From contig CAWBHS010000063.1 in assembly GCA_963788655.1 (NCBI GenBank), forward strand, positions 1 to 48,268: DNA of 48,268 nucleotides, in the 5' to 3' direction. This stretch comes from an uncultured Verrucomicrobiae bacterium (lineage in GTDB: Bacteria > Verrucomicrobiota > Verrucomicrobiia > Limisphaerales > JAFGQR01). A program made the position numbers and the translations under genes. The notes below the pieces were generated by a model. It searched no databases. It was not told where the DNA came from and saw only the letters and a list, made by a program, of their open reading frames with translations. This document shows positions 7,838 to 47,591 of the stretch, one piece after another (position 1 is the stretch's first letter; each line of letters starts with the position of its first letter).

Positions 7838-9146
7838 TCAGGCAAGGTTCCAGGGTTCGCGCATGGGGCGGTCGAGCCATCGACTGGCTTCCGGATCGCC
7901 AATGATTTCCTCCTTCACCGGATCCCATTTCAATGGACGTTTCAGCCAGTAGGCAATGTTGCCCAGGTGACAATGCGTGGCCGTGCGATGCGCGATGGCG
8001 ATGTCGCGGAACGGACGTTCGCGGGTGCGGACGCAATGCAGGAAGTCGCCAAAAATTCCGCCGCTGCCTTTGTAATTTGGAATGTGTATGTCCGGCGGTT
8101 GTTGCTGCTCGCCCTTGCCGTCACGCGCGGGAATCTCGCCTTCAGTCCCGCGGAAGGACAGGAGGCCGCCCCAGCCGCCGCCGTGATAAATGCGAATGCC
8201 GTTGGCAAACACGTAAGTCAACTGCGGGTGGTCCTTGTCGGGCGGAATAATTTCCACCGGGCCGGTCTCTGTGAAGATTCAACGCGAACAAGGCGCCGCC
8301 GAAAGTGTGGCAGCCCCAGTCGGTCATGCCGCCGCCCGAGTAATCGCGATAGGGCCGGAACCCGCCGGTGATCAGCGTCGGATGAAACGGTCGCCACGGG
8401 GTCGGACCGAGCCAGAAGTCCCAATCGACTTCCGCCGGCGTGGGCACCGGCGGCAGGTAACAGGGACCCGATGGTCCGCCGACATTGACCCAGGCCTCCT
8501 TCGGTTCGCCAATGGCGCCGCCGCGGACCATCCGATGGAACCAGTTGTAATCGCCCCACACGCGCTGGCTGCCGCCGGAAAACACGCGGCCATAACGGCG
8601 GGCCACGGTGCGCATCACCTGGCCCTGGTGAATGGTCAGCGTCTCCGGCTTCTCGCAATACACGTCCTTGCCGTGCTTCATGGCGTCGAGGGAAATCAAC
8701 GCGTGCCAATGGTCCGGCGTGGCGATCAACACGGCGTCAATATCCGGCCGCCGGGTGATCTCGTGAAAATCGTTGTCGGTTCGGCAATCGCGGTTGCCGT
8801 AGCGTCCATCGACCGTGCCTTTGGCTTGGTTCCGGTGGCTGGCCACCACGTCGCAAACCGCCACGACCTGCACTTGTTTGAAGCCCAGGAAACCGCCCAT
8901 GTCGCCGCGGCCCTGGCCCCCCATGCCGATGCAACCCATGACAATCCGGTCATTGGCGCCAAAGGACCGGGCGTCGAGGAAGAGGGGGGCAGTGCCGGCA
9001 ACCACTGCCGCTTGTTTCAAAAAGGAACGTCGAGTCACACCGAGCGGCGGGGCCGCAGCCAAAGTTGAAGGCTTAGGAAGTTGAAGAGTTGACGCGGCAG
9101 GAGATTTACGAGGCCCGCCCAAATTTGTAAGTAGTGGGTTCTTCAT
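7838..9146 (-). CDS. Gfo/Idh/MocA-family oxidoreductase with Tat signal (frameshift near 8270)
   Basis: TRRSFLK twin-arginine motif, IGMGGQG, IATPDHWHA, DVYCEKP, DWGCH; the C-terminus HRTATHCHLGNIA..WDP..E is in ORF 7838..8257. Confidence 0.9.
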
Positions 9147-11296: not shown

Positions 11297-11705
11297 TTAG
11301 ATCGCAAAAAATTAGATCAAAGCGAATGCCGACAGTACCAGTTTGGCCAAGCGCTTCACGTGGCCAGGAAAACCAAGATGGCCAATAGGACAGCCAGACA
11401 AAGAGGACACAACCGTGGCGCCCGCACTTCACCGGGAACCGTGCTGGCACAGCCGCCGAGTGGCAGTTTGACGCGTGTGGGAGCGAACAGCCCATTCATT
11501 TCCAGATGCGCATTATCTGTTTTGGTAGTGAGCATTACAAAGACAAGAGTTGAGCAAATTCCTGGCCCGCAGACCGCTGATGCCAAGCCGGTGTGTTTGC
11601 CCCGAATGCAGCCGCTTCAGTTCGTTGGCCGGACCAAGCATTTGGCAGATAACAATCCCGCATTTGTTTTCCAATCCTGGGCCGTCTTTCATGGCAAGTG
11701 GATTC

Positions 11706-12368
11706 TTAATGATGGGCCGCCTTGTTAGCCAGCAAGAGGACCGCAGACTTTAGCTCAGCCTCGCTCAGGGTGTTAGTGACAATGTTTACAACGCGTTCCG
11801 TGCCCTTAGGTTTCCAGGATGCCTGTCGGACGTACAAATCGACTTCATCCATGCACTCATCGATTACCTTTTGAAGCTCTCGTTCACGCTGCCATTTGGC
11901 TAGCTTCCGATTGTTTTCGGCAATGGCTTCTTCGTATGCACGCCGCGCCACCGGATCCTTCACGTCCTTTGGCGCCATCCCCGCCATTGCGCCGGGAAAC
12001 AAAATCGGAGGCATAACCTTCATTGCGATATCGCTCCGACGCTTGGTGCTGTAACTATGATCTCGGGCACGGTAACTTCGTTCGAGAACCTGCAAGACCA
12101 GGTGAATCATTGGGTCACCCACTTCCGGTTGGGAACGGTAGCGGTTCGTGCTCGATGCCCATGAAGCCAGTTTTTGAGCGTCTCGCAAATGTTGAACATC
12201 CCCGTCTTTGTCAAACGCTTCTATCTTCTGATGCACTTGAGGCTCGATTTCCTGGGTGACTTTCAGCACTGCCTCCCGCGGCGGCGGCGCGGCGGCCACT
12301 TGACCGGCTTGGTAAAACAAAAGTAGCAAACCGAGGTAATTGACGTTTACGACAAGAATGCATTTCAT
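11706..12368 (-). CDS. Signal-peptide helical protein; candidate immunity protein, paralog of 14147..14813
   Basis: Hydrophobic N-terminus ending AAA; directly follows variable C-terminal domain C; shares a V.PP...AG..P...DP..R..YE.AI..N..K motif with 14147..14813. Confidence 0.7.
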   Translation of the reverse strand: MKCILVVNVNYLGLLLLFYQAGQVAAAPPPREAVLKVTQEIEPQVHQKIEAFDKDGDVQHLRDAQKLASWASSTNRYRSQPEVGDPMIHLVLQVLERSYRARDHSYSTKRRSDIAMKVMPPILFPGAMAGMAPKDVKDPVARRAYEEAIAENNRKLAKWQRERELQKVIDECMDEVDLYVRQASWKPKGTERVVNIVTNTLSEAELKSAVLLLANKAAHH

Positions 12369-12379
12369 AAGCATGGCAT

Positions 12380-14147
12380 TTATGGCAAGGGTTGAGCAAT
12401 GCAATTGGAGGTGCTGATAAAATAGCCAGAACTGCGCTTGGTCCAGGAATACGTTGTGTCGGCACCAAAGATGGCAAGCTCACTTTCCATGCACACCGTG
12501 TCAAAACCGTGTAACTCCCCACCTGCGCCTGTGTCATAAAGCCAATCAATGTCGTAACTTAGAGTGCCGTTAGTAAACGGCGGAGGGCCTGCAGCGTAAC
12601 CGATTACATCGTACGTTGCCATCTTCGTGCCTTTGCCGGTAACAACCAAATCAGCGAATTGATGCGGCCCATTAGGATCATGGTTACGTGTTGCTGGATT
12701 ATCGACAAAGTATCCCGTCTTGGTGGGAGCTGCCTCAGATTCGTAGCTTCGGACCATCGAGAAGTTTACAGTGTCAGGCTGTAGATAGACGTTAGCATGG
12801 TAGGTCAGGTAAATGTAATTTATAGATGGCGGATTAGGACAGCCAGATGCAGCCGCCTCCAGATTTTCAAACACCGTAAGTGAGGGTTCAATTACGTTAA
12901 GGATGATTGACCAATTCAGCTCTGCCGTAGCAGCAGTTATTGTATTCGTCGATCGAACGTCTGGCGCTTCGAAGTCCACCACTGAACCGTTCGTTGCACT
13001 TAGATTTCCGCCCCCAGAAACAGACCATACCGCATCCTCTATTACAGGAGGTTCGAAAAACAACCGAACCAACTCCCCGACGCCAATTGTCGTTCGAAAC
13101 CGATTATCAGGCTCCGTGGCAATTGTTCGATTTACAAGCTTTATAGCCATGCACGTCGCCGTATCCGTGGCGTCCGGGTAAATGTCGCTGGTGGCGGTGA
13201 TGCTGTAGATACCCCCATTGGTGCCCGAGGCAATTTCCACAGTCGCCCCGACGTTCGTCCCCGCGAAAAACGCCCCGCCATTCGTGCTCAGGTCCGGATC
13301 AATACTCCACGTCACATTCGTGAAGCTGTCCTCCGTCAGACTGAAAGTGTTCGTGGTCATGTTGGTGCCCGTGATGCTGGTGTACACGTTGGTTTGTTGA
13401 ATGTCCACCTTCACCACGATGAACCGGCAGAAGTTGCTTGAACTGCCCGCTTCCACCGCCAGGTCGTTCGTACCCGGCACCGACACGTTCACGTACCGCC
13501 GCAGCGGGTCGTACGGGTCCGGCTCGACAATGCCGGGACCGGTGGTCGTCCATTGCCAACAACCGGGCAACTGGGCAGCCGGCAGTCCGGGCGGCGAATA
13601 ATCGGCCAGGAACGTCACCAGGTACGGCGGCCCGACTTCCGGTGGTGGCGCCCACAACGTGGCCCGCGTGGGCGAATCGGCATCGTCCGGCGGCAGCGGA
13701 TCACCGCCACTGGGAGTCAGGGATTCCGCCTCAACAATCGTCAGGTTGGCCGTGTCGAAGCAACTGTCCAGGCCATTCATATACGCCTTGAGCGTGACGC
13801 TGGCGCCGTGGGGCCCCGACAGAATGCTCACCGGGGTGCCGCTATTGGTGCCTCCTTCAAACACCGGTCCCGCGTCGGCTGGCTCCAGTTCCCAGAGCAC
13901 GTCGGCCGAACTGTCCGCGGTCAGGCTGAACACGTTCGTACTGCCCAGGCAATTGGTGAGGCCCGTCGGCGCGATGTCCGCCCGGCCCACGATCAGCGTG
14001 GCCGACGCGCTGGAACTGCCGGCCGTGGCGGTAATCACGTTCGTGCCCACTCGGGTGATGTCCGCGGGTACGTTCCAAGAGGTTGGTGCCCGGCTGATGG
14101 TCATGGCGATAAACAAAAGGATTAAACTCGCACCGTGAGGCTCTCAT
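12380..14147 (-). CDS. Second (orphan-type) copy of the secreted Ig-like stalk with alternative C-terminal domain C
   Basis: Open from 14116 to 12380; 13153-14091 duplicates 17050-17988; unique C-terminus starts KLVNRTIATEPDNRFRTTIGVGELV. Possible ATG at 14147 is one base out of frame with the signal-peptide remnant. Confidence 0.8.
13153..14091. repeat. 939 bp direct repeat, copy 1 (constant stalk)
   Basis: Constant offset of 3897 to 17050-17988, no indels, about two dozen substitutions by manual comparison. Confidence 0.97.
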
Positions 14148-14813
14148 TACTGCGCTTTCGCTTTGACTGGAAGCAATTCGCCCTTGATTTTCTCCCTTCT
14201 CACGGTACTCTGAGCAGGTAGCATTCACAGTATTTCTCACCTCGTCTGCATCCTGCTTTGAGGAAGAAAAGTTAGCCCTAACGTAGGACTTGAGACGTTG
14301 TGTCAGTCGGTCTTCTACTTCACGCAGTTTATTCTGAAGACGATAGCGTTTCGCCTTCTCGGTGTTTAAATTGATCGCATCCTCATATTCTTTGCGCAGC
14401 TTTGGATCACTGATGGCGCTCGGATGTGAACCGGCCGATACTATCGTGCCAGGAGGGGGAGCGACATTTTCTTGCGGAACGTCATTCGGATCGAACGTTG
14501 GATCTCTAAATCTCCCGATGCCATCCAACACTTTGATGAATAATATAAGCTTTACACGTCGCCGGTATTTCCATTCCGCAGTGTTCTCCGGCCCAAGCGG
14601 CAGCTTCTCGATCTCCGACGCTAATTGGTAAAGCATTGGCAAATCGAGGGGGAGCTGAATTGCGTCGACGCGGTTGCTAATTGCCTCGTACCTTTCTCGC
14701 ATACTCTTTAGGTCTTGGCTTGAAGGGACACGGGCCTGAGAAACAGCACCCTCCAATGGCCCCCGCACAAAAACGGTTATTGGAATTGCTAGCAATACAA
14801 GGTAATCTTTCAT
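14147..14813 (-). CDS. Signal-peptide helical protein; candidate orphan immunity protein (probable frameshift near 14210)
   Basis: MKDYLVLLAIPITVFV start; RDPTFDPNDVPQENVAPPPGTIVSAGSHPSAISDPKLRKEYEDAINLN. Removing one base near 14210 gives ...RREKIKGELLPVKAKAQ* with TAA at 14147-14149. Confidence 0.7.
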
Positions 14814-14839
14814 AAATTCTTCAGTAGTTCGAAGTTGGA

Positions 14840-15130
14840 TCATTCGTCGTTTGGAACGTATTGCGGTTTGATGACAGCCTTGGACCACGCAGCAAAATCA
14901 GCACACACTTGGAGGTGCTTGTCGGCTGGAAGCGGAGATTCCCCTTTCGGTACTCTCAGAAATGGACGAATATCTTCGGGAATGTCTCCGTCCGAATTGG
15001 AAAAACATGATGTCATCGTTCCAGGATAAATGTCGCTGCTGTTCTTCCCGGTCTGGCCTTGACCGACATCAGTACCGGTAATCACACCAAGGCTCACGAC
15101 CACGAACATGATGCTCTTAACTGTTTTCAT
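14840..15130 (-). pseudogene. Short signal-peptide ORF, probably a truncated immunity-like gene
   Basis: MKTVKSIMFVVVSLGVITG start, 96 aa, begins 28 bp after the orphan tip remnant. Confidence 0.5.
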
Positions 15131-15158
15131 AACGAGATTCGTAAAAATTCTTGTTCTT

Positions 15159-15284
15159 CTAAGGTGTGCCAGGAGCGTAAGACACGGCTGTTGCAGTATC
15201 ATGAGACCATGCCTGATGCGATGTGCTGGTTCCGCTTGTGTTGGGCTGGGTTGAATCCAACAGCACTTGATAACAACCAGTCTT
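15159..15284 (-). pseudogene. Orphan C-terminal tip remnant homologous to the end of 16028..18686 (not in ORF track)
   Basis: Translates KTGCYQVLLDSTQPNTSGTSTSHQAWSHDTATAVSYAPGTP*, which aligns with ETKAVDVLHHWVDPNTAATGNHQCYFDQQNQVVPYAPPPEPTY*. Confidence 0.7.
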
Positions 15285-15375
15285 GATATTGATATATGCG
15301 AGGATTGCGCCGGGAAAGCCGGCGAGGAGGAATACCCAATATCAAGACCCGTTGCCGTTGCCGTTGCCCGTTGCA

Positions 15376-15978
15376 TTATTTTAGGCCTTCCGGATAGGCG
15401 ACCCGTATAGCCCGCAACGATCTGCTCAACGCCTCAACGTATTTCTCAACAACATCTCTCACCGCTTTTTCCATCGCGCGGTCAGGCGGATTCTCTTCCA
15501 AGTGCATAATCAGCCGCATTTGGTTGTTGCCCTCTCCCAGCGGCAAAAGAAAAATCGTGCCGGCCACCTTAACGGGTCGATTAACGATATAAATCTCCAG
15601 TTCTACTCCACCATTCTCCACAATATGCCTTTCACCTGATGCTGAGACGCGGCCCTGTGAATCCGGTGGGATCTGTTCGATGCGGACATTCTTGCGATAA
15701 TCGAGGTGGTGATAAACGGGGAGCGGCTTTTGCTCGGCTTTGTTATAAGGCTGTCCGTTCACGATCTTGGCCGCCGCAAGTCCGTCCAACGGAGGGAACT
15801 TCTGTCCCAATGTTTTCAAGTCTTGATCAATATTCGTAAGCGCTGTCGCACAGGCTCCGAATATATCCTCGCGGGCCTGCTGAGCAACTTCTTGAGAACC
15901 AAAAGCTCGCTGGCACACTGCCAACAATAGGCACGAAAGAGTGATACTGCACAAGATGCTTGTTGGCTGTCTCATCAT
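15376..15978 (-). CDS. Signal-peptide protein; candidate immunity protein for C-terminal domain A
   Basis: Sec signal (…LSCLLLAVCQRAFG), 200 aa, starts about 50 bp after the effector stop; gagagga RBS-like sequence upstream. Confidence 0.7.
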   Translation of the reverse strand: MMRQPTSILCSITLSCLLLAVCQRAFGSQEVAQQAREDIFGACATALTNIDQDLKTLGQKFPPLDGLAAAKIVNGQPYNKAEQKPLPVYHHLDYRKNVRIEQIPPDSQGRVSASGERHIVENGGVELEIYIVNRPVKVAGTIFLLPLGEGNNQMRLIMHLEENPPDRAMEKAVRDVVEKYVEALSRSLRAIRVAYPEGLK

Positions 15979-16027
15979 AACTTTCTCCTCTCGATTTTTC
16001 TCATGGTTTGCTGTTCAAGCGGCTCGA

Positions 16028-18686
16028 TCAATAAGTTGGCTCGGGTGGTGGAGCGTATGGAACCACCTGGTTCTGCTGGTCGAAATAGCATTGGTGGTTT
16101 CCTGTAGCCGCAGTGTTCGGATCCACCCAGTGATGCAGCACGTCAACCGCTTTGGTCTCCGCCGCTCCAGCACCTCCCATCCAATATTTACTTCTGAAAA
16201 GACAGCATCCTTCGTAATTGTTCCAACCACCAGAGATGAAGCCCAACCGGGTGTTATTGTCGCCCGGCACACGGTGTTCCATCACACTAAAGCTTGGGCT
16301 ATCGCTTACCAGGCCGCTCCAACTTGCGTGCCGCGCGTACACATATTTGACCGCAGAACCAGTCGCTCCAAGCAAATCCAGCTCGTATTTCATCAGCGTG
16401 GATAAGGTGCCGCAGTCAGCGCTCGTTCCATCCATCACCTGCCAAGCGTTGGTCATTCCACCAAAGATGCTGTTATTCGGGTCAAATCGTGAATGTGCGG
16501 TTGCGTCCGGACCGACCGTGTCACCAATCTTGTCGAGCGTGTCCTGGCCTTGCGCCAAAGTGCAAACCCAATCAATCCGTTTGATCGTCGGCTCGGTTGT
16601 GGTGGTCGGGCTATCCCATAGCACATAAATTTTATGTGGTCCCGAAGTTCCCGCGTCGCACGTGTGAGTTGAATTAATCGTCACCGTCCAGACGACCGAG
16701 TTGTTCAGGATATCAATCTGGGGCGGCAGATTCGTGTCAGCAGTCATCGCCAGGGTTTGATCGCCACCGCTCGAGGTGATTCCGGTGCTGTGGAAGCTCA
16801 ACGCGGGGCTTCCACTCTCACCAGCAAGATCGTAGGTCAGATCGCCTGGCGCCACGCTGATGACCACGTTCACGCCAACACTCTGGCCTTTGGTATGCGT
16901 TACCGGATTGTTCGTCAACGGAAACTTTCGCCAGCCACGAGGGCTGAAAACAGTACCACCTTCGCCAGCATAATTCGTATTATAATCAGTCAACACGCCA
17001 TGGTCCGTGGTAAAAATCACCGATTTCACTTCGGTTTTAAACACGGTCAACGTCGCCGTATCCGTGGCGTCGGGATAAAAGTCGCTGGTGGCGGTGATGC
17101 GGTAGATACCCCCATTGGTGCCCGAGGCAATTTCCACAGTCGCCCCGACGTTCGTCCCCGCGAAAAACGCCCCGCCATTCGTGCTCAGGTCCGGATCAAT
17201 ACTCCACGTCACATTCGTGAAGCTGTCCTCCGTCAAACTGAAAGTGTTCGTGACCATGTTCGTGCCCGTGAGGCAAGTGTACACGTTGGTTTGTTGAACG
17301 TCCACCTTCACCACGATGAACCGGCAGAAGTTGCTTGAACTGCCCGCTTCCACCGCCAGGTCGTTCGTGCCCGGCACCGACACGTTCACGTACCGCCGCA
17401 GCGGATCGTACGGGTCCGGCTCGACAATGCCGGGACCGGTGGTCGTCCATTGCCAACAGCCCGGCAACTGGCCAACCGGCAGCCCGGGCGGCGAATAATC
17501 GGCCAGGAACGTCACCAGGTACGGCGGCCCGACTTCCGGTGGCGGCGCCCACAACGTGGCCCGCGTGGGCGAATCGGCATCGTCCGGCGGCAGCGGATCA
17601 CCGCCACTGGGAGTCAAGGATTCCGCCTCGACAATCGTCAGGTTGGCCGTGTCGAAGCAACTGTCCAGGCCATTCATATACGCCTTGAGCGTGACGCTGG
17701 CGCCGTGGGGCCCCGACAGAATGCTCACCGGGGTGCCGCTATTGGTGCCTCCTTCAAACACCGGTCCCGCGTCGGCTGGCTCCAGTTCCCAGAGCACGTC
17801 GGCCGAACTGTCCGCGGTCAGGCTGAACACGTTCGTACTGCCCAGGCAATTGGTGAGGCCCGTCGGCGCGATGTCCGCCCGGCCCACGATCAGCGTGGCC
17901 GACGCGCTGGAACTGCCGGCCGTGGCGGTAATCACGTTCGTGCCCACTCGGGTGATGTCCACGGGTACGTTCCAAGAGGTTGGTGCCCTGCGCGCCCGGC
18001 CCGGTGCTGGTCAGGCTGTAGCCCGCGGGCAGGTCCGCGGCGCTGACGGTGGGCGTGATCTGCACTTGCACGTTAAGGTTGGTGGTCGGGGCGTTGGTCG
18101 CAACCGCGCAAATGCGATAGGTGGTGTCATCCTGCACATACGTCAGCCCACCCAGCGGAGTCACGTTCAGGCCGGTGACGCCCAGGAAGGCGAAGTCCTG
18201 GTTGATCGAGGCGGTTTCATTGCTGCCACAGGGCGCCGGGCGGTTGGTGTATTGCAGGGTGAAGTTCAAACTGCCCACGCCGGGCGTCGTGGCCGTAAAG
18301 CTGGCCTCGCCGGAGCCGCTGGCCGGCGAGGTCGCCAAGTCGCTTGTGCTCCAGTTGGTGCCCGCCATGGCCGGCTCGAGTGGGGTTGGGTACTGGTTGG
18401 AGGAGGAGCAACTGGCTCCGGAGGCGTTGGTGAAATAAATGGTGATGACATTGCTGCCCAAGCCGGTGGCGTATTGCACCGAGGCGTTGAGATTACTTCC
18501 CACACAAGCCAGGGCCTTGAACGAATACCCGGCATTGGTGAGGGTAGGCGACCACGAGATGTTCGTCAGCGCCAGCGACGAGGCGGTGCAGTTGGTGCTG
18601 CGGCTCGATTCGGTGCATGGATTGGCTGCCCGGGCGATGGTCATCGCGATAAGCAAAAGGCTTAAACTGGTTATTGTCTTGCTCAT
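16028..18686 (-). CDS. Secreted Thr/Ser/Asn-rich Ig-like-repeat protein with variable, possibly transglutaminase-like, C-terminal domain A (frameshift near 17964)
   Basis: GGAG RBS and signal peptide MSKTITSLSLLLIAMTIARA. ORFs 17754..18686 and 16028..17962 join as GTNLLERT-VDITRV if one G of 17963-17965 is removed. C-terminal ADCGTLSTLMKYELDLLG motif. Confidence 0.8.
17050..17988. repeat. 939 bp direct repeat, copy 2 (constant stalk)
   Basis: Matches 13153-14091. Confidence 0.97.
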
Positions 18687-18698
18687 ACTCCGCCGTTT

Positions 18699-19694
18699 CT
18701 AGCCGTTGTTCAAGGGGCTTTCCTTTTGACTGCGATGTTCCATTCGCAAAAGGGCGGTCCGCGCCGCCGGGCGCAGTCGAATGGGGCCGTTCGTGGCCAG
18801 AGCCTTCAGAAATGGGACTTCTTCGGCCCCGCCCAGGCTTCCCAGGGCAGCCACCGCCGAAATCTGCAACGCTGTGGTCGAGGCGTACCGCGCGACGCCC
18901 AGCACAGCCGGCAAAGCCTCATGAACTCCGCCTTCGGCGCAGACCTGGATCGCGGTAATTCGACTGAGTTCCCCGGTATCTTCCTGTTCCACCAAGCGCA
19001 AAGCCATCCGCGCGATTCGCTGGCGGTCGAGAGTCGGATAGGATGCAGCCAGGCGCCGCAGCCCCAAGAGAGCCGTGCCGGCGATGCTGCTGTTGGTTTC
19101 GGACATCGTATCCCAAAAAACCTCGAAGAACCGTGTGGCAGACATCGGCTCCGAAGCCGACGACCCACTTGGCCGCAGTCGTTCGAGCCAGACCACCAAG
19201 TGCTGCAAGGCGTAATCACGCATCACAGTTTCCTGCTCTGAATCCCGGCAGATTTCCGTGAGCACGTTCCCCAAATCCGTCGGGGGGACCGCTTGGCGAC
19301 AAAGAACATCCAGGATGTCGTTCTTCAGCACGTGATCATCACTGGCAAACGAACGGTTTGGCGCCGGTTTGGTGCGCACCAATTTGTACAAGGCCTGGCA
19401 TTCCTGGTGATTCAGGTTTTTGTCCAATTGGTGTACCGCAGCCAATCGTGCCCAAAAATTGGTGTGACCATCTAGGCCGAAAACAGGACGCAGGGAGATC
19501 GGGAGGTTGAGAGTCACGGATTTTGGGTTGAGGGAAGAAGCCGGGAGCTTTGGCGGCGCGACAACCTGCTGGCGCGGAGGGGGCGTGGGCGACGGTGGGT
19601 CCGGTCGGCTCAACGGACGGTACTTAACCAGCCAAGCCAAGCTGGCAGCCGTCGCCACCAATGCTGCAATCACAATGAACTTCCTGACTTTCAT
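18699..19694 (-). CDS. Membrane-anchored or secreted HEAT-like helical protein
   Basis: MKVRKFIVIAALVATAASLAWL, Pro-rich linker, KNDILDVL, MRDYALQHL, SAVAALGSLG; ATGA overlap with the upstream gene. Confidence 0.8.
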   Translation of the reverse strand: MKVRKFIVIAALVATAASLAWLVKYRPLSRPDPPSPTPPPRQQVVAPPKLPASSLNPKSVTLNLPISLRPVFGLDGHTNFWARLAAVHQLDKNLNHQECQALYKLVRTKPAPNRSFASDDHVLKNDILDVLCRQAVPPTDLGNVLTEICRDSEQETVMRDYALQHLVVWLERLRPSGSSASEPMSATRFFEVFWDTMSETNSSIAGTALLGLRRLAASYPTLDRQRIARMALRLVEQEDTGELSRITAIQVCAEGGVHEALPAVLGVARYASTTALQISAVAALGSLGGAEEVPFLKALATNGPIRLRPAARTALLRMEHRSQKESPLNNG

Positions 19695-22600
19695 GGCACC
19701 AGTCCCAATTGGATTTCGCCCTGGAACGCTGTGGTGGTATGGCACACCGAGGTCTGGGCGGTGCGGGGCCGCAGAAACCGCACTTCCGCCTGACCCAACT
19801 CGTTAAAATTTCCTGCGTGCAGGATCTTGGTGATTGTTCCGTCGTCAAAAATGATGCCCCCCACGATGATCTGCACCCTTACCGACACCGGCGGACGTAC
19901 GGGACTGAGCACCAGCCCCATTGCTACGAGTTGACTGCCGTCCTCGTAATTCTCGAGCACGCGCAAATAAACATCCGTACCCGCGTAAAGACGAAAGCCA
20001 TCCACCGCCGTGGTTCCCAGCACCGGACCATGGTCGCCCAGGCGCGCATCCACAAACCGGGTTTCGGGTGCGTCGGTGTTGAGATTGAAACGAGGGGTAT
20101 CGTTGGTCGATGTCTCATCCCCGAACGAAAGTGGTTCCAGTAACAAACGCGGATCAGCCTCAAGCGAAACTTCCGGGAGAAGGTTCCGGCACATCCAAGT
20201 ACGGGTTTGGCCCGCCCAGACAGCGGGCGCCTCGTCAAACGAGCAACTCACGACTTGAACGGTAAGGCGGCCGGTTTGGTGGGCGCCCTGGACCGGCGCA
20301 CACGTGCCGGTGACCACGTAACGACCCGGTTGGTCGAAACGGCATGGCAGCAAGGTGCCGGCCGGACCGGTGTAGTTGGTCAAGCCGGGAATGTCGAGAG
20401 ACATCGCGGCAGATAGGCTGTCTGAATCGGCCACCGGAAATTCCCGCCCGACCGTGAACAGCACGGCGTCTCCCTGCCGGATAGTCAGGTCGCGGGCCTT
20501 CAAGACATCGGTGGGGCGCCAAGCGATTTGGGTGGCTTGCGTCAGGCCCCCGTTTTGGAACGAGATTCCAACGGTGGTTGTAAGGGCGGGCAAGAGGGTT
20601 ACGTTGGCAAACCAATGATGGCCGGCGGCCGGCTGCGGCGCCTCGCCGCCGGTGATGCGTATCATGCTCAGATAGCTGCCGCGGCCATCCAGACAGCAGG
20701 GAGAGGTGGGCGAGAGCATTATGTTGGTGCCATTGGAACTCAGCGGCTCCCCGGTCTTGGTTTCGATACCACAGAGGGTCTGGAGACGATGCTCAGCCCA
20801 GTCGTTCACGCCGTTGCCGTTGGCATCCATCCCCTGGAGGGATTGGAAACGGACAGCGACTAACCGTAGCGAGCGGTAGGGAGCGACATTATCCCAATAA
20901 ATCCGGATGCGGTGGTCCCCGCCATTGAGCCAGGGCATCAGGACCTGAACCAAACCTGTAGCCTCACTGCCAGCCCGCAGGTATTTGCGCCCCAAAAATT
21001 CACCATCCACGGAAAGGAGCAACTCAAATTCGGGATTGATGTCATTGGGATTCTGCGAAGCGCCCTCAACTTCGAGCCGATACATATCGGCTTGCGGTGC
21101 GGTAAGGATATATTCCACGAAACCGCGAGCATCCTTGGCAAATAGAGCCGTGCCTTCAACGGCCCATTGGCCAAGCGTAGCCACTGCGGCAGCCCCTGGC
21201 ACTTCCGCTACGGTAGTGATCTCCTGGATATCGCTTTCCAGCGGGTTGGTGCCCGTTTCCCTCAACTCCACGGCATCGGGCAGTCCATCGCCATCGCTGT
21301 CTTCGCGTTGCGGATTCGTTTTCGCTTGGAATTCCTCCAAGTTGGAGAGGCCGTCCCGATCCGCGTCCTTTTGCGCGTCGCCAGACTGGGTGGCAAGGAG
21401 ACCATTGTGAATTTCCCATGAGTCGGGCAATCCATCGTCATCCGTGTCGGCTTGCCGCGGATCCGTGCCAGCCAAATATTCCTGGAGATTGGTCAGCCCA
21501 TCGCCATCCAAATCGGTGGAGGCGTCGCTGGCATCGGTGTCATCCAGTCCATACAATCGTTCCCAGCGGTCGGGCAACCCGTCGCGGTCCTTGTCCTCAA
21601 TCTGGGCGTAGAACGCGTTCGTCGGGGAATAAAGCTGGCTTTGGGGCACCGTTTGTCTGGGGGTCGAAGGGCTGCTCCATTGGAATTGAGCTACCGCTTC
21701 CCCCAGGTTCTCGTAGTACTCCAGCCGGACGAGATACTTGTGCCCAACCAGTAGCGGCACTTTTGCTGTCATGCGGGTGGCCGCGCGGTCACTCCAGCCG
21801 TCGATGACTTTGCGCCCATCCAGCCATAAGCGACATCCATCGTCGCTAATGACATGAAACGCGTATGGTTCGCTGAATTGCGCCTCAACCATCCCTTCCC
21901 ACCGTACGCTGAATCGGTCCGCACTGATGCCGGTAGTTGGCGTGCTGCGTCCCCAATTAAAACCGACGGTGGGATCAATCCGGGAAACAATCGTTTGAGA
22001 ACCTTCATTAAAATAGGTTCCGAGAAGGCCGTCACCAGTCCCGGTCAACGCCGCCAGTCGCGGCGAGACGACAGAACTTTCAGTATAACCAACTTTCACA
22101 TTCTCGAATAATGCGGTGCAGCTCTTTTGGTTGTTATGACTCGTGACCGCCAACCCAACCTGGATACTGGTGGGCATGGGCACCGCTTCGGTCGCCACCC
22201 ATTCCCACTGCGCTCCATCACTCGAACGGTAACCAGTGAAGGTGTTTCCATATCTCACCAGTTTGAGCCAGCAGGGCGCGGTGGCTGACCCTCCAGGATC
22301 GTCGATGCTAATGCCGGCAAGATTGCTCCGGAACTGGAAGGAAACCCCTTTTTCGGGCGTGAGGCTTATCATTACCTGGCGCGAGTCATCGGCCAAAGTC
22401 TCGCGCATCATAATGCATGCTTTGGCCCACGGATCCGTGTTTTGTACCGCCACGACACGGGCAACGATTTGGGCCTCGCCGTTAATCGACTGATAGACAT
22501 AATGGCACGCATCTGCATTTCCCCAAATGTCCCAGCCCGAACCAGTAACCATGTAGGTTCCACTACCAAAGGAACTTGCCCCGAACTGACCTGGATTTCC

Positions 22601-24001
22601 GATATCCCGCGCCAGCCAAGGGAAAGGCACATTCAAGGAGTAGTTGTCCGGCACCCTCGGATTCTTGCCAGCCCTGTATTCTTCGAGGTTGGAAAGGCCG
22701 TCACTGTCCGGATCGTCAAAGGCATCCGCCGCATCTTGGGGATCAAGCCGGTAGTCCTCTTCCCAAGAATCAGGCAAGCCATCGTGGTCCGTATCGGTAA
22801 CGTGGGAATAAAGCTGGCTTGTGGGAATGATCTGCTTTGGCGTGGAAGGACTGCTCCACAATAGCTTGCACACCGCGGCTTGCCCGTGCTGGAAATACTC
22901 CAATCGAATCAAGTATTTCGCGCCGGCTGTCAAAGTGATGAGGCCGCTTGACTCCGTAGCGGCGTGGGCGGCGGAGTCATCTACCAACAGTTGCCCATTC
23001 ACCCAAAGTCGGGCCCGGTCATCGCTGACCACGTGGAACCCATACGGCTCACTGAATTGCGCCTGCACTTCACCTTCCCAACGGACACTGAACCGTTCTT
23101 GCTCAATCCCCTTCGCCGGATTCGTCGTCCAATTGAAATCAATAATTGGCAAAATCTCTGAAACGGTGTTGCCACTTAAATCGATATCTTCAAAAAAGGT
23201 CGCTTTCAGCCCGTCACCAGTGCCGGGCGCTGACGCACCAGCGGGCTCAACCGGTGGAGCTTCGTCAGCCGGTGCATTGGCAAATTCCAGACTGTTCAAT
23301 ATGGCCAGACATCGCCGGAGGGCATCCCGGCTCGACAGCGCCAAGCCACCATAAAGGCCATCCGGCATTTCCACGCGCTGAGTCCCCGCCCACTGCCATT
23401 CGGTGCCATCCTCAGAGTAATAGCCACTGAATAGATTCCCTCGGCGCACCAGCTTGAGCCAGCAAGGCACGGTAACGGGTTGCGCGGGCAGCAATGCTAG
23501 AGAACGGCTTTGTCGCTCTGGGCTGTCGGTTCGTGAATTTGCGGTTCTTCTCAGGAAAGGTGTGTCGGCTGCGCTGTCCTCACCCTTCGCCAACCGATAT
23601 TGAAAAGACACCCCGTTACTCAGCGTTAGGAAGATCGACACCTGGGGCGAGTCCGCTGCCAAGGAGTGCCGCAGCATCAATCCGGTTTTTGCCCAAGGAT
23701 CGTTACTGTGAATTTCCAGCACGCGCACCACAAGCTCTCCGTCACCCTCAAAACTGGACCACGCAAATTGGCACGCATCCGCCTTACCCCATATATCCCC
23801 TGAACCGGCCATGAACACAGTTCCCTGCCAGTTCGAGAAGCTTCCGCCTTGTGGCACAGAACCCAAGTCCCCTGAAACAAGAAGTGATGAGATACTTTCG
23901 CTGGGATTCGCTGGGAGAGTAGAAGCAGCCAAAATGTTTCCGGTTTCTTGCCAGCACAAAAGAACCAAACAGACCCAACCGAAGTGCCTTACCTTTTTCA
24001 T
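19691..24001 (-). CDS. Large secreted protein: 2x ConA-like beta-sandwich, 2x PA14, TSP3-like Ca-binding repeats, uncharacterised C-terminal ~500 aa
   Basis: Signal peptide from MKKVRHF; G.DIWG.AD and DPWAK twice; FSVRWEG...SDD..RLW PA14 twice; repeated D.D.DGL.D/N..E motifs. Confidence 0.88.
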   Translation of the reverse strand: MKKVRHFGWVCLVLLCWQETGNILAASTLPANPSESISSLLVSGDLGSVPQGGSFSNWQGTVFMAGSGDIWGKADACQFAWSSFEGDGELVVRVLEIHSNDPWAKTGLMLRHSLAADSPQVSIFLTLSNGVSFQYRLAKGEDSAADTPFLRRTANSRTDSPERQSRSLALLPAQPVTVPCWLKLVRRGNLFSGYYSEDGTEWQWAGTQRVEMPDGLYGGLALSSRDALRRCLAILNSLEFANAPADEAPPVEPAGASAPGTGDGLKATFFEDIDLSGNTVSEILPIIDFNWTTNPAKGIEQERFSVRWEGEVQAQFSEPYGFHVVSDDRARLWVNGQLLVDDSAAHAATESSGLITLTAGAKYLIRLEYFQHGQAAVCKLLWSSPSTPKQIIPTSQLYSHVTDTDHDGLPDSWEEDYRLDPQDAADAFDDPDSDGLSNLEEYRAGKNPRVPDNYSLNVPFPWLARDIGNPGQFGASSFGSGTYMVTGSGWDIWGNADACHYVYQSINGEAQIVARVVAVQNTDPWAKACIMMRETLADDSRQVMISLTPEKGVSFQFRSNLAGISIDDPGGSATAPCWLKLVRYGNTFTGYRSSDGAQWEWVATEAVPMPTSIQVGLAVTSHNNQKSCTALFENVKVGYTESSVVSPRLAALTGTGDGLLGTYFNEGSQTIVSRIDPTVGFNWGRSTPTTGISADRFSVRWEGMVEAQFSEPYAFHVISDDGCRLWLDGRKVIDGWSDRAATRMTAKVPLLVGHKYLVRLEYYENLGEAVAQFQWSSPSTPRQTVPQSQLYSPTNAFYAQIEDKDRDGLPDRWERLYGLDDTDASDASTDLDGDGLTNLQEYLAGTDPRQADTDDDGLPDSWEIHNGLLATQSGDAQKDADRDGLSNLEEFQAKTNPQREDSDGDGLPDAVELRETGTNPLESDIQEITTVAEVPGAAAVATLGQWAVEGTALFAKDARGFVEYILTAPQADMYRLEVEGASQNPNDINPEFELLLSVDGEFLGRKYLRAGSEATGLVQVLMPWLNGGDHRIRIYWDNVAPYRSLRLVAVRFQSLQGMDANGNGVNDWAEHRLQTLCGIETKTGEPLSSNGTNIMLSPTSPCCLDGRGSYLSMIRITGGEAPQPAAGHHWFANVTLLPALTTTVGISFQNGGLTQATQIAWRPTDVLKARDLTIRQGDAVLFTVGREFPVADSDSLSAAMSLDIPGLTNYTGPAGTLLPCRFDQPGRYVVTGTCAPVQGAHQTGRLTVQVVSCSFDEAPAVWAGQTRTWMCRNLLPEVSLEADPRLLLEPLSFGDETSTNDTPRFNLNTDAPETRFVDARLGDHGPVLGTTAVDGFRLYAGTDVYLRVLENYEDGSQLVAMGLVLSPVRPPVSVRVQIIVGGIIFDDGTITKILHAGNFNELGQAEVRFLRPRTAQTSVCHTTTAFQGEIQLGLVP

Positions 24002-24017
24002 AACACTTGTCCATTCT

Positions 24018-24638
24018 TCATCGTTCGGCGCCGTCCCCGGCTTCACGGAGTATTCGGCGAAGCTTCATGAGGATGCGGTCTTTGGCCCGCTTGACCCTTT
24101 GCCGCTGCTCCAGCGGCGCCAAATGAGCCAAGCCCATAATCTCCGAAAACTCCACTGTTCGCCGTTCACCCGAGAGCCACCTCTTGAAGATTTCTCTGTC
24201 CACGGGATCTTCAATAAGTTTGATCGCCCGCTCGAACTGCTGCTGAGGAATCGAATTCCCATCCATTGATATATTCCCCGCCGATGGACTGAGTTCGACA
24301 GAGTTTTTGAGGAAATCTTCGGCCGCCTGTCGTTCACGGTCTTTCCGACGTTGCTCGGCGCGGTGCAGATTGCAGAGGTTCTTCCACGCATTGTGCGACA
24401 GGAACCGATCAAGCGGCACATGCAGGGAAACCTGAAAACGTCCTGGCTTCGCCAAATAATCCAGGAGCGCATCCACAGATGCATCGAAAATTAAATCCTT
24501 GTCAACAAAAGGGAGTCGTTTCCTTGTCGCTTCAAGCAGTCTTGGCAGTAGTTGTTGTGCAAGCACTTGGCCGGCTGCCTCCCTTCCAGAAATCAACTGA
24601 TGGTGCAACGCCAGAAGCTGATCCTGGGCGGATTGCAT
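24018..24638 (-). CDS. ECF-type sigma-70 factor
   Basis: Region-2-like DASVDALLDYL...LDRFLSHNAWKNLCNLHRAEQRR and region-4-like DREIFKRWLSGE..TVEFSEIMG...VKRAKDRILMKLRR. Confidence 0.75.
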   Translation of the reverse strand: MQSAQDQLLALHHQLISGREAAGQVLAQQLLPRLLEATRKRLPFVDKDLIFDASVDALLDYLAKPGRFQVSLHVPLDRFLSHNAWKNLCNLHRAEQRRKDRERQAAEDFLKNSVELSPSAGNISMDGNSIPQQQFERAIKLIEDPVDREIFKRWLSGERRTVEFSEIMGLAHLAPLEQRQRVKRAKDRILMKLRRILREAGDGAER

Positions 24639-24905
24639 TGCTGCATGCGGCTGATTGGCAGAGCAGGAAATTGACGCCGGCATCGACAACCCAAAGCTCC
24701 GCGTACGCTTGACGTCGTCGTCGTCTGCCGAGGTATGCGCGACGACCGCGTTCACCTGTGCGCGGCAGTCTTCCGGCCTTGACTGTTCCTTGCCCATACG
24801 AGATCTCCAAGCAACTTGGTTAAACTTACAGCGAAGTGGAGTCAAGCTATTATCTGGCTCGTCGGACTTGCGCACGTGCTGGCGCTGAGGCACTGAGGAA
24901 TCGGA

Positions 24906-25174: not shown

Positions 25175-27053
25175 TCAGTTCTTGGTGATGGTTTGGACCA
25201 GCCGCCCGACATAACCGTTGGCGCGACCAGGGGCTTGGGGGTCTTTAATCGGCATGGACTTGATAAAGGGCTTCAAACTGTCGGCCTTGTCGCCCAGCGC
25301 GTCGATGGCGTTCAAGGCCTGGATCGAAATGTAAGCGCCGTTCTTGTCGGGCGGCGCCAATTCCTTGAGCGTGGCCAGCGCCTTCTCGAGATCGCGCCGG
25401 CTGCCGTACTCGCCCAACGCCCGCGCCGCCGTCACGCGCACCGTCGGGGAGTCGTCCAGCAGCGCTTGATACAGGGCGGCCCGCGACGAACCGACCGCCG
25501 GCTCGCCGCGCACCAACATGCCCATCGCCGCCCAGTAGCGCACCGCGCTGTCCTCGGCGCGCAATCCGGCCTTGAGCTTCGACAAATCGCCCGGCACCGG
25601 CATCGTGGCGGTGTCGGCCATCATCATGATCCGCACCAGCGGGTACTTCTCGGGATCGTGGCCCATTTCGTAAATGGTCGTGCCGGCGGCGCGACGGTGC
25701 ATTTCCGCTTCGGATAGAAAACCGACGTCGCGAATTTTCAACGCGTGCTCACGCTGGGCCAGACGCAGTTCCTGCAAAATCTCCTGGTGCGCCGGCGAGT
25801 TGACCAGGTTGACGACTTCGTCGCGATCGTTCTGCAAATCGTAAAGTTCTTCGGCCGGCTTGCGTTCCCAGAAATAGGTTTGGGGCGGCTTCAATTTGCC
25901 TTCGTCATAAAGTTGCTTCCACACGCGGGTGGTCGGCGTTTGGAACATGTAGTCGATATGCTGGCCGTAGATCAGGTGCGGCATGTAATTGCGGATGTAA
26001 ATGTACCGGTCGTTGCGCACCGAGCGGACCATGTCGTAGCGCTCGTCCATCCGGCCGCGAAAGCCGAACTGGTATTTCGGCGGCGGCGTTTGATACTTGC
26101 CCATGAAGGCATGCCCTTGCATCCAATCCGGCGGTTGTTCCCCGGCGAGACTCAAGAGCGTTGGCGCCAGATCGATGAATCCCACCAAGCGGTCGGACCA
26201 CCCGCCCACGGAGTATTCGGGGGGCGCCAGGTCCTTGAACTTTTCCGGCACATACACAATGAGCGCCACGTGCAGACCAGAGTTGTACGGCCAGCGTTTG
26301 CTGCGCGGCATGCCGGAACCGTGATCGCCGTAGAAGAAAACAATGGTGTCCTCCATGAGTCCCGCCGCTTCGAGCTCTTGCAGACGCTTGCCCGCCTGCG
26401 TGTCCATTTCGGTGACGATGTCATAGAATTGCGCCCAGTCATGACGCACCTCCGGCGTGTCCGGGTGATACGCCCGCACGCGCGCCTTGGCCGGATCGTG
26501 GACGAGCGTGTGGGGGCGTTTTCGGATTTGGCTCTCGTGACTGATGGTGAGGTTGAAGATCGAGAAGAACGGCTGGCCGGGCTTGCGGTTTTTCCAGTGC
26601 GCCTTTTTGGACGAATCGTCCCAGACCTTGCCCGGCTTGGTGACGTTGTAATCTTCCTTGTTGTTGTTGCTGCAATAATAACCGCGCTCGCGCAGGAACT
26701 GCGGATACAGCTTCATGAACGAAGGCAGTTTGACCTCGCTGCGCATGTGCTGACCGCCGAGAGCGGGGGGATACACGCCGGTGATGATCGTGGTTCGAGC
26801 CGGCGCGCAGACCGGCGCGGTGGACCAGCAGACGCGATAGCGCATGCCCTTTTTGGCGAAGCGCATCCAGGTTGGGCGTTACGGCGTAATCATCGCCGTA
26901 GCAGCCCAGTTCCGGGCCGGTGTCTTCGCAGGTAATCCACAAGATGTTGGGCAGGTCGGCACCGCGGGCGGATTGCGCCAGCCAACTGGCAGCGAGGCAT
27001 AGAGACAACAACACGAAGCAACAAGTCGAAGCCGGAAAACGTCGGTGGTTCAT
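25175..27053 (-). CDS. Sulfatase (Cys-type CxPxR) with C-terminal HEAT repeats (frameshift near 26862)
   Basis: Signal peptide, PNILWITCED, TPNLD, CAPARTTIITG, FFYGDHG, EELYDL..D..E..NL, VRYWAA. Confidence 0.92.
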
Positions 27054-27234
27054 GGGCGAGAAAACAACATTGGCGCGTCGAATTGTCAAACGTGATTTCG
27101 GGGCGCAAGTTGAGAACAACCCCTGCGCCGAACTGTTGGCAAAGCGAAAGTATCACTGTGGAGGACACAGCAGTTCCCCTCAAAAAGTCAGCGGCGCTCT
27201 CCCGGGACGCTGCCGCGAACCGACTGGGATTGGG

Positions 27235-45138: not shown

Positions 45139-45329
45139 TTTGGCATCATGTCCATGGCCCAACTATTTACCCACCAAACCACCAACCACCCCTTGCTCGC
45201 CTAACCGAAGCAACAAACGGAACTGCGTGGCTGGGATAATTACATATCAGATTCCCTTCAGGCGGGAAAGCAAAATTATCACTGCAGCGATGCTTTCAAA
45301 CAGGTATGGCGGGTTAATCGCCAGCTTCC

Positions 45330-47477: not shown

Positions 47478-47591
47478 CGTGTTTCTGGCGAACCACCGCG
47501 GGCAGATGGGGCCGACGAAGGTCCGGTAAATTGGGGCGATACCATGCCAACCGCAGAACACGGTGTCAAAGGGAAAGGGGACTCGGAGGAA

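Follow-up and report, generated by a model that had tools for sequence, protein, structure and literature searches.

Polymorphic toxin loci with orphan cassettes, such as those of the Rhs and CDI systems, are well studied in Proteobacteria. A stalk conserved across strains is a hallmark of polymorphic toxins, and the VENN motif is a feature of CDI toxins. Soil and water harbour Verrucomicrobiota and their relatives in abundance, and to our knowledge orphan-cassette loci have hardly been studied in these groups.

In Salmonella Typhimurium LT2, according to the sections of Koskiniemi et al. (2014, PMC3967940) dealing with the locus, rhs-main and the rhs-CT-orphan share a block of 522 bp at 95% identity. 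The orphan is described there as a fragment devoid of initiation and export signals, which carries a different C-terminal domain (CT) and is followed by a small gene of its own. When the shared block recombines, the delivery part acquires the orphan CT, and the CT of the main gene is lost together with its partner. For CDI, the part of Poole et al. (2011, PMC3150448) on orphan cdiA-CT/cdiI modules presents them as displaced CT/immunity pairs located downstream, with a piece of conserved upstream coding sequence. In passages of Zhang et al. (2012, PMC3482391) and Geller et al. (2021, PMC8213781), the PVC-metallopeptidase or DUF4157 domain (eCIS_core in Pfam) is N-terminal with the toxin at the C-terminus, and an excerpt of the former defines Tox-TGase by the residues C, H and D.

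The DNA analysed here, referred to as the window, is an entire contig of 48,268 nucleotides from a genome bin of 115 contigs (86% complete, 5.6% contamination). The host is an uncultured soil-type bacterium. All parts of the locus described below are encoded on the minus strand. A locus in the window resembles the rhs locus as given in the sections cited: a putatively exported main gene and a candidate partner are followed by a start-less fragment, the shared block being here 939 bp at 97.6% identity. Unlike rhs, the carrier consists of a putative signal peptide and an Ig-like stalk, the orphan retains a signal-peptide remnant, RHS/YD repeats and a T6SS context were not found by Pfam analysis, and the locus is known from sequence alone. 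As in the CDI orphans of the part cited, a CT and a small ORF are found 3' of the main gene and keep an upstream coding piece. Unlike CDI, neither a TPS domain nor FHA repeats nor a VENN motif were seen (Pfam, E <= 0.01) and a CdiB-like gene was absent from the window ORFs scanned. By analogy, this arrangement of a main gene and a spare cassette 3' of it appears to be one already known from bacterial polymorphic toxin genes. With moderate confidence, we read the region as a polymorphic-effector (toxin-like) locus of the Sec-exported type, in which a main gene is followed by an orphan cassette; from this we infer that secretion, toxicity, an immunity function and actual switching may take place.

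Extent and divergence of the stalk repeat

The stalk is present in two copies. Copy 2 (17050..17988; ~313 residues in Ig-like units) lies in the upstream main gene and copy 1 (13153..14091) in the downstream, 5'-truncated orphan gene. An earlier, sequence-only reading had claimed an alignment of both copies without gaps, and 916 of the 939 positions do match at an offset of 3897, with 23 substitutions and no gap (97.6% identity). A repeat search also recovered the pair. On either side of the 939-bp repeat, identity on the offset-3897 diagonal is at background level, and no further copies of any part of the locus were found elsewhere in this genome by tblastn.

The substitutions were said to crowd toward the CT junction; 22 of the 23 are located within 13153-13733, the 581 bp next to the C-terminal domains, and the remaining one is at 14064. 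The identical stretch on the gene-5' side, put at about 320 bp, measures 330 bp (13734-14063). The binomial P for at most one of 23 substitutions in the last 358 bp of the repeat is 2.4e-4, and an identical run of at least 330 bp was obtained in 0.1% of 100,000 permutations (p ~0.001). The 330-bp identical tract suggests a recent gene conversion between the stalk copies. In the stalk frame, 13 of the differing codons are synonymous and 9 non-synonymous, a substitution pattern in which coding constraint, or purifying selection, is visible.

On the CT side, identity ends as claimed at ...YPDATDTAT, after which one copy continues with LTVFKTEVKSVIF and the other with CMAIKLVNRTIATEP. At DTAT the shared stalk switches abruptly to unrelated C-terminal domains, as is expected of polymorphic toxins. 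This end falls within the last strand of an Ig-like unit or immediately ahead of it, and therefore within a few residues of a domain boundary; the claim that the two coincide exactly holds at that resolution, at which exactness is not provable. The gene-5' end of the repeat falls midway through an Ig-like unit. GC3 falls at the DTAT junction in both copies, from 0.80 to 0.47-0.59. The stalk has a GC of 0.64 and a GC3 of 0.80-0.81 (genome GC 0.596), CT-C, the domain of the orphan, 0.49 and 0.47, and CT-B, that of the main gene, 0.54 and 0.59; the GC of the small ORFs is 0.49-0.53.

These data bear on a different explanation, in which the genes are tandem paralogs of modular surface proteins that arose when an Ig-stalk gene was duplicated, its domains were shuffled and gene conversion occasionally occurred. 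The heads, binding or enzymatic, would then act on environmental substrates, the small ORFs would be unrelated, and the truncated copy would be a decaying pseudogene without switching. We consider this rather unlikely: the GC3 break is located exactly at the junction in both copies, and the substitutions of the repeat still show purifying selection.

Main gene and orphan gene

The main gene encodes, in this order, a putative signal peptide, an N-domain, the Ig-like stalk and CT-B. Its 5' part (17989..18686) comprises a signal-peptide-like start (MSKTITSLSLLLIAMTIARA), assigned by eye, and an N-domain of ~210 residues. As assembled, this N-terminal export signal is out of frame with the stalk, and the 5' ORF continues out of frame to 17754. 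What had been called a full-length gene is thus not a single frame, the ORFs 17754-18686 and 16028-17962 being in different frames. The break is situated inside the repeat, ~25 nt in, and is common to copies 1 and 2. Its likeliest site is a C-run at 17963..17965 (equivalent to 14066-14068 in copy 1), where the N-domain frame runs through ...GTNLLERT and the stalk frame starts from VDITRV. Comparison of motifs with P0013, P0017 and P0008 makes a frame change at this run most likely, and GGG at 17984-17988 is the alternative site. A break exactly at the repeat boundary was considered and rejected, since the motifs of the relatives favour the C-run ~25 nt inside. The homologs P0013 and P0017 are uninterrupted across the N-domain/stalk joint, and indel errors are numerous in the assembly, a split rpoB included.

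The stalk of copy 2 is 45% identical to P0017 over its length and 36% identical to P0013. Besides these two distant relatives, a single weak match was found and no more: 60 related genomes contained only one weak match, and none of 153 pattern matches in metagenome contigs was confirmed. Pfam families were not detected in either stalk protein at E <= 0.01. A stalk-like protein of a same-order genome (L002) carries a different end domain with an HExxH motif, recognised by eye.

The orphan gene is composed of a signal-peptide remnant, the stalk and CT-C. Rather than a plain second gene, copy 1 represents a 5'-truncated one, whose signal peptide is devoid of start codon and n-region. The remnant DNA (14087..14128) is identical at 37 of 42 positions to 18627-18668 in the upstream gene. 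Remnant and repeat overlap in the pentamer GGGCA, and neither an ATG nor an n-region occurs upstream of the remnant. Copy 1 therefore lacks initiation and export signals and yet is homologous to the main gene, as is expected of an orphan. The missing start codon also speaks in favour of the paralog explanation.

A start-less truncated copy that shares a conserved 5' block, together with the evidence for non-reciprocal exchange in the repeat, would also suit a silent-cassette type of variation, where the truncated copy is a pilS-type donor that, by gene conversion or deletion, changes the specificity of a surface adhesin tip and not of a toxin. This is improbable, one argument being that there is just one silent copy.

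Stitching in tandem of two strain alleles with different CTs during assembly of the metagenome bin is very improbable. The contamination of the bin (5.6%) and the many indel errors of the genome, with rpoB split, are compatible with such an artefact. However, allelic stitching predicts an N-domain ahead of copy 1, and this is not the case. The joint is unique, being made of the 3' end of p257, the 42-nt signal-peptide remnant and the GGGCA overlap. The small ORFs p257 and p232 are only 28% identical and thus not alleles, and the same tandem design is seen in independent assemblies from other phyla.

C-terminal domains

CT-B (16028..17049; 340 residues) is predicted to contain a beta-sandwich and a transglutaminase-like core. 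Its AlphaFold2 model reached a pLDDT of 96.9. Foldseek returned TG3, factor XIII and protein 4.2 with E values of 1e-5 to 1e-3, and VIA-align gave Z scores of 10.9 for factor XIII and 10.1 for TG3. In the model, the resemblance to transglutaminases is clear at the level of the fold. As in Tox-TGase and in factor XIII, TG3 and TG2, the beta-sandwich precedes the transglutaminase-like core, and an invariant Cys is located at a helix start (Cys213, in 56 of 56 aligned sequences). Unlike Tox-TGase, CT-B has no Pfam match at E <= 0.01, Transglut_core (PF01841) included, and neither a conserved His nor a His/Asp pair was seen in the alignment of 56 sequences. Asn277 is present in 54 and Glu280 in 50 of the 56. 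From the alignment, we take Asn277 to stand at the position where the Transglut_core motif expects His. Since a conserved His is missing and an Asn occupies its expected place, CT-B may not be a standard Cys-His-Asp enzyme. The absence of the His is a point for the paralog explanation; the enzyme-like fold with its invariant Cys argues against a silent cassette for an adhesin tip.

A 50%-identity library contains 491 representatives related to CT-B at E <= 0.001. Among the matches listed, nearly all span query residues ~300 to 644, behind differing N-termini. CT-B is regarded as a large and uncurated family of C-terminal modules.

CT-C (12380..13152; 257 residues) consists of an Ig-like domain and an all-beta domain of unknown function, without any Pfam match. 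Its relatives P0006 and L022-L024 are 30-37% identical. The model has a pLDDT of 69.4, and the fold search produced generic Ig and beta-sandwich matches only, Big_2-CBM56 among them. The beta-sandwich folds, modelled with modest confidence, are equally compatible with a toxin and with a binding domain. The resemblance of CT-C to tandem beta-sandwiches fits the paralog explanation, and its likeness to Ig and CBM-like folds, Big_2-CBM56 included, fits the silent cassette.

Candidate partner genes

Small ORFs with signal-peptide-like starts come after both CTs. The ORF p200 (15376..15978; 200 residues), which has a signal-peptide-like start and lies 49 nt 3' of CT-B, is a candidate partner. The next one, p178 (14840..15376), likely gives a shorter product starting from an internal signal-peptide-like stretch, MKTVKSIMF..., identified by eye. 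The third, p257 (14150..14888), is a full-length paralog of p232 (28% identity). As assembled, its frame stays open as far as 13857; with a frame slip near 14190 it would terminate after ...AKAQ at two stops, similarly to the end of p232. The ORF p232 (11706..12404) has a signal-peptide-like start, its start region overlapping or closely abutting the CT-C stop, and is by adjacency alone the candidate partner of CT-C.

No Pfam families were detected in the small ORFs. Among 400 genomes of the phylum, p200 was found in the window's own genome only, and it is not a member of the partner family A3 described below (hhalign probability 0.2%). A search of 5.8 billion proteins revealed no homolog of p232 outside the window, and an atlas search gave no usable match. 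The p232/p257 profile aligned at equivalent positions with the ORF following the CT-C relative in L022, over 50 columns, with an E value of 0.025 and a probability of 2%, which is not significant; BLASTP of p232/p257 against this ORF returned nothing. Relatives of p200, p178, p257 and p232 were searched for outside the window and none was found. As p200 does not belong to A3 and the partner ORFs of the window have no relatives, the window locus is without the partner conserved in related loci. Complex prediction of CT-B with mature p200 scored 0.01 against a mark of 0.32, which is neither for nor against binding. That p200 and p232 have no relatives favours tandem paralogs. Each CT is accompanied by a small, putatively secreted ORF of its own, for which a binding tip would have no need, and this weighs against a silent cassette.

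Related loci and genomic surroundings

Related loci were retrieved with a 10-row CT-B alignment. In 9 of 10 of them, A3, a conserved secreted partner family without Pfam match, was detected by HMM directly 3' of the CT-B gene; the HMM was built from five of those nine loci, and the independent detections are four of the five remaining ones. Truncated orphan copies with near-identical 5' blocks occur in two of these loci. In L015, main gene and orphan agree in 30, 30 and 26 of 30 columns in successive blocks and in at most 11 thereafter, and the orphan has a second, divergent partner gene. L019 contains two more truncated copies. Loci of other phyla repeat the layout of a main gene, a 5'-truncated orphan and a second partner gene.

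Relatives of both CT families were found behind unrelated N-termini. Among 38 proteins scanned, eCIS_core was present in three, P0016 and P0079 with CT-B and an ORF of L024 with CT-C; the other carrier domains were PKD, HYR, Kelch, fn3 and Transglut_core. As in DUF4157 toxins, the CTs of these three are C-terminal to eCIS_core. Unlike them, the window proteins combine an Ig-like stalk with a putative signal peptide of the Sec type, and eCIS_core (PF13699) was absent from the 11 window proteins scanned with Pfam. The eCIS_core carriers in both CT families, the dedicated secreted partner after CT-B in 9 of 10 loci, and the recurrence of a truncated copy with a new partner all argue against tandem paralogs; the tie of the relatives to eCIS_core carriers also argues against a silent cassette.

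Giant modular exoproteins (PA14/TSP3 and PKD) are encoded in the window, and many in the same-genus genome G001. The richness of the genome in such proteins favours the paralog explanation. Synteny with G001 was not observed, as no ortholog of the flanking glycosyltransferase was found there and the PA14 protein gave domain-level matches only. The HEAT protein of the window shows no similarity to the HEAT-like ORF that follows the stalk protein in L002. A promoter and terminator scan of 11300-19900 gave fewer sites than in shuffles.

Proposed mechanism and significance

The sequence-only reading had proposed that recombination between the copies would act as a ready-made cassette switch. The geometry is as claimed: both repeats have the same orientation on the coding (minus) strand, and exactly 3897 bp, containing CT-B, p200, p178 and p257, would be removed by a crossover. 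The idea is partly supported, by the 330-bp conversion tract, the GC3 drop at the junction and the same layout in other phyla; it needs amending for the split frame of the main gene as assembled and for the 5' truncation of copy 1.

In the polymorphic-effector reading, the main gene would lead from a signal peptide through an N-domain and an Ig-like stalk to CT-B, with small secreted-protein ORFs after it. The orphan would have kept 939 bp of stalk, fused to the unrelated CT-C with its own closely abutting p232, and would be missing the start codon, the N-domain and all but a remnant of the signal peptide. Homologous recombination would have its substrate in the stalk DNA common to both genes. 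Non-reciprocal exchange would, to judge from the tract, already have made 330 bp identical. Through a reciprocal crossover, 3897 bp would be lost, and the exported N-domain and stalk would be followed by CT-C and p232. CT and partner modules, with a GC below that of the stalk and relatives on unrelated carriers, would act as exchangeable cassettes.

More tentatively, the locus could represent an undescribed Sec-exported polymorphic-effector class of the PVC superphylum, characterised by an Ig-like stalk, a head with a beta-sandwich and a transglutaminase fold, and a secreted partner, whose heads are traded. The alignment suggests that the head of such a class may have a Cys/Asn/Glu centre instead of Cys/His/Asp. 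Its partner may be a dedicated secreted family of ~250 residues, present in no domain library scanned, which neutralises the head. The heads may be traded between Sec-stalk and eCIS (DUF4157) carriers. In that case the window would show a locus caught mid-act, with a main gene, an orphan with an unrelated head and a fresh conversion tract.

If the reading fails, the locus would be another tandem pair of modular surface proteins. If it is true, a signal peptide with an Ig-like stalk would be a new carrier type, and the locus would define both the large, uncurated effector-head family CT-B and a conserved partner family. It would also offer a natural example in which the sequence itself displays both the substrate of recombination and a recent tract of conversion.

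Two stalk copies ending in different C-terminal domains

The contig carries two direct, co-oriented stalk segments, at 13153–14091 (copy 1) and 17050–17988 (copy 2), with an offset of 3897 bp; the second stalk gene, which holds copy 1, is truncated. The segments are identical at 916 of 939 positions (97.6%) without any gap, identity drops to background immediately outside, and the same pair was recovered by a repeat finder. Translations of both copies are shared up to ...YPDATDTAT, after which they diverge (LTVFKTEVKSVIF... vs CMAIKLVNRTIATEP...). All genes of the locus lie on the minus strand. The sequence-only reading had described this repeat, the end of identity at DTAT and an identical tract at the gene-5' side, and all three were confirmed.

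Differences between the copies are unevenly distributed: 22 of the 23 fall within 13153–13733 and the remaining one at 14064, leaving 13734–14063 (330 bp) without differences. If the 23 differences fell at random, the last 358 bp of the repeat would receive one or none with a binomial probability of 2.4e-4, and an identical run of at least 330 bp was obtained in 0.1% of 100,000 random placements. The identical tract is thus conversion-like. Among the differing codons 13 are synonymous and 9 non-synonymous, with a dN/dS of about 0.25 (an estimate from a rough site count, not model-based), which argues that the shared stalk frame is kept under purifying selection. By tblastn, neither the stalk nor the end domains nor the small adjacent ORFs occur a further time in the same genome bin. 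Among related genomes and metagenome contigs the stalk is nearly unique in sequence; it aligns along its whole length to the relative P0017, with 45% identity.

Base composition changes where identity ends. GC3 is 0.80–0.81 in the stalk copies and 0.82 in the N-domain of the main gene, and falls to 0.59 in CT-B, the end domain of the main gene (16028–17049), and to 0.47 in CT-C, the end domain of the orphan gene (12380–13152). The corresponding GC contents are 0.64 for the stalk copies, 0.54 for CT-B, 0.49 for CT-C and 0.49–0.53 for the small ORFs, with a genome mean of 0.596. Composition and identity therefore break at one point in both copies, and the CT modules are compositionally foreign, as would be expected if each end domain had entered as a cassette together with its neighbours.

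Main gene, orphan gene and small ORFs

The main gene begins with a signal-peptide-like start at 18686, followed by the N-domain of about 210 residues (ORF 17754–18686); stalk and the 340-residue CT-B follow in another frame (ORF 16028–17962). The orphan gene (ORF 12380–14116) consists of a signal-peptide remnant, the stalk and the 257-residue CT-C. Its first 42 nt match the DNA encoding the signal peptide of the main gene (18627–18668) at 37 positions, and the remnant has neither ATG nor n-region. This start-less remnant in front of the stalk points to copy 1 as a 5'-truncated orphan. The pentamer GGGCA forms the overlap of remnant and repeat in copy 1 (14087–14091), and in the main gene it ends both the signal-peptide segment (18627–18631) and the N-domain (17984–17988). 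The 5' end of copy 1 could thus be derived from a main-gene-like copy by a 643-bp microhomology deletion between GGGCA pentamers.

Four small ORFs are found, three between the two stalk genes and one behind the second. One (p200) is located 49 nt downstream of CT-B and has a signal-peptide-like start, and another (p178) lies between the two stalk units, its product being probably shorter than the ORF. The ORF p257 (14150–14888) precedes the orphan copy, and p232 (11706–12404) follows it, with a start region overlapping or closely abutting the CT-C stop. The latter two are full-length paralogs with 28% identity. As assembled, the frame of p257 stays open as far as copy 1; with a one-base slip near 14190 its end would resemble that of p232. 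This ORF may have been left behind as the partner of a former CT-C-like domain that was displaced by the CT-B module.

Three ORFs lie immediately upstream of the stalk gene on the same strand (18699–24893). They encode a HEAT-repeat protein of 348 residues with a membrane anchor, a protein of 1451 residues in which two PA14 domains occur together with TSP3 repeats and DUF1349, and a product of 291 residues. Given the very short distances between them, these ORFs and the stalk gene may be a single operon. A further large exoprotein, encoded by the 1856-residue ORF at 39592–45162, has three PKD domains and beta-helix matches of the NosD/chondroitinase-B type.

The frame break of the main gene

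The sequence-only reading had spoken of a full-length gene. The layout of N-domain, stalk and CT-B is present, but the frame is broken as assembled. The window is one whole contig (48,268 bp) from a bin of 115 contigs and 8.96 Mb (86% complete, 5.6% contaminated) in which the essential gene rpoB is divided over two frames (contig C45, 53113–54568), with several single-base indels relative to a same-genus genome of 83% identity. An ATP-grasp gene on another contig of the bin is spread over three frames, and within the window genes for Gfo/Idh/MocA (7838–9146), a sulfatase (25175–27119) and carB (45875–47690) are split. Single-base indel errors are therefore frequent, which makes the ORF calls of this genome unreliable and any lone frameshift in the contig suspect.

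In two distant relatives of full length, P0013 and P0017, N-domain and stalk are joined without interruption. Of the ten residues flanking the break, four in the N-domain frame (…TGPGAQGTNLLERT) are shared with P0013 (…TGPGVGGEGKLSRT) and none in the alternative frame (…PTSWNVP); a K/L-L-x-R-T-V motif at the break is also present in other units of these stalk proteins. On this basis the frame change is best placed in the C-run 17963–17965, about 25 nt inside the repeat, and would be common to copy 1 at 14066–14068. The likeliest cause of the shared break is a systematic or cross-polished consensus error, since the assembly is error-prone; a real frameshift spread between the copies by conversion is a less probable alternative. 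With an X inserted for the break, the product of the main gene would comprise about 885 residues.

Folds and relatives of CT-B and CT-C

Stalk, CTs and small ORFs of the window all lack a Pfam match. An exhaustive HMMER search with the 644-residue ORF carrying stalk and CT-B against 1.84 billion representatives retrieved 491 proteins at E ≤ 0.001, of which 306 remained at 1e-10 and 93 at 1e-30. In nearly all matches listed the best stretch was CT-B (query residues ~300 to 644), located behind N-termini of widely differing length; of those listed, only the second copy in the window, P0017 and P0036 matched from before query residue 200.

The AlphaFold2 model of CT-B (56-row alignment, pLDDT 96.9) shows a beta-sandwich (residues ~1–145) followed by an alpha/beta core. 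Foldseek retrieved transglutaminase 3, factor XIII and protein 4.2 (E 1.7e-5 to ~1e-3), and VIA-align gave Z scores of 10.9 for factor XIII (259 aligned), 10.1 for TG3, 8.1 for TG2, 8.6 for a putative Cytophaga cysteine protease and 6.8 for LapG. Cys213, at a helix start, and Trp203 are invariant (56/56 each), Asn277 (54/56) and Glu280 (50/56) nearly so, and no conserved His was found in the 56-row alignment. CT-B is thus predicted to be a transglutaminase-fold domain with an unusual centre. Tox-TGase is marked by C, H and D (PMC3482391), and CT-B is at most a candidate member of it. Few relatives of CT-C were found, at 30–37% identity: P0006 and three loci from metagenomes. The CT-C model (pLDDT 69.4) comprises an Ig-like and an all-beta domain with generic structure matches only, and CT-C could equally be a binding domain.

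Carriers and partners in related loci

A Pfam scan covering 38 relatives and neighbours placed CT-B C-terminal to eCIS_core (formerly DUF4157) and OmpA in P0016 and P0079; other CT-B carriers showed PKD, HYR, Kelch, fn3, TPR or Transglut_core domains. CT-C was located C-terminal to eCIS_core in one related locus (L024). DUF4157/PVC-metallopeptidase is described as an N-terminal carrier of variable C-terminal toxin domains (PMC8213781; PMC3482391). In the same-order genome G025, a 635-residue protein (L002, 982–2889) combines stalk-like Ig units with a different C-terminal domain, which has an HExxH motif (HEQVH, by eye). A HEAT-like ORF follows the gene, and the domain may represent a further head carried by a stalk of this type.

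Ten loci with CT-B relatives were compared; each stems from a metagenome bin, with labels including Verrucomicrobia, Kiritimatiellia, Planctomycetota and Omnitrophota. In nine of them (among L012–L021) a gene of one family, named A3, lies directly behind the CT-B gene on the same strand, for example at L018 11049–11801, L012 3884–4606 and L017 11082–11831; the locus without it, L014, has a carrier of the OmpA type. The A3 profile was built from five of the ten loci and detected members independently in four of the remaining five. Members have about 230–340 residues and signal-peptide-like starts, and none of the eight scanned matched Pfam; A3 is a candidate for an immunity or partner family that is not yet curated. 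Modularity and partner synteny are thus family-wide.

Orphan cassettes recur as well. In L015 (Planctomycetota bin) the order is main gene, partner, 5'-truncated CT-B copy and second, divergent partner, and identities of main and orphan copies per 30 columns are 30, 30, 26 and then ≤11. L019 has one main copy and two truncated copies with partners, and in L018 the partner gene is duplicated. The arrangement found in the window is thus seen again within this protein family, in assemblies made independently. An ORF with a transposase-like N-terminus (by eye) was seen right after the orphan cassette of L015 (7258–8334).

The local partners are less clear. The ORF p200 lies outside A3 (hhalign probability 0.2%, no match to the A3 HMM) and has no relatives in 400 genomes of the phylum. 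For p232, no relatives were found in a 5.8-billion-protein search, no usable atlas match was obtained, and the link to the ORF behind a CT-C relative (L022) was not significant. The pairing of each CT with its neighbouring ORF is therefore putative, adjacency being what connects them.

A possible cassette switch

The main gene product would be exported by the Sec pathway, and CT-B, as well as CT-C once recombined, would act on other cells or the envelope, with the adjacent secreted ORFs shielding the producer. Recombination between the stalk copies would have two outcomes. Either the copies would be homogenised, as appears to have happened already, or 3897 bp would be lost, which would activate CT-C and p232 and discard CT-B, p200, p178 and p257. 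In Salmonella rhs the shared block measures 522 bp at 95% identity, and a prior duplication is proposed to guard against losing the main immunity gene (PMC3967940); the same problem would arise here upon deletion.

The cassette switch put forward from the sequence is partly supported. In its architecture the locus matches a polymorphic-effector gene followed by an orphan cassette, and the relatives agree with this. The main gene is frame-broken as assembled, and the local partners have no relatives. The locus would belong to a known type of system, with a carrier that is unusual and a host phylum that has been little studied.
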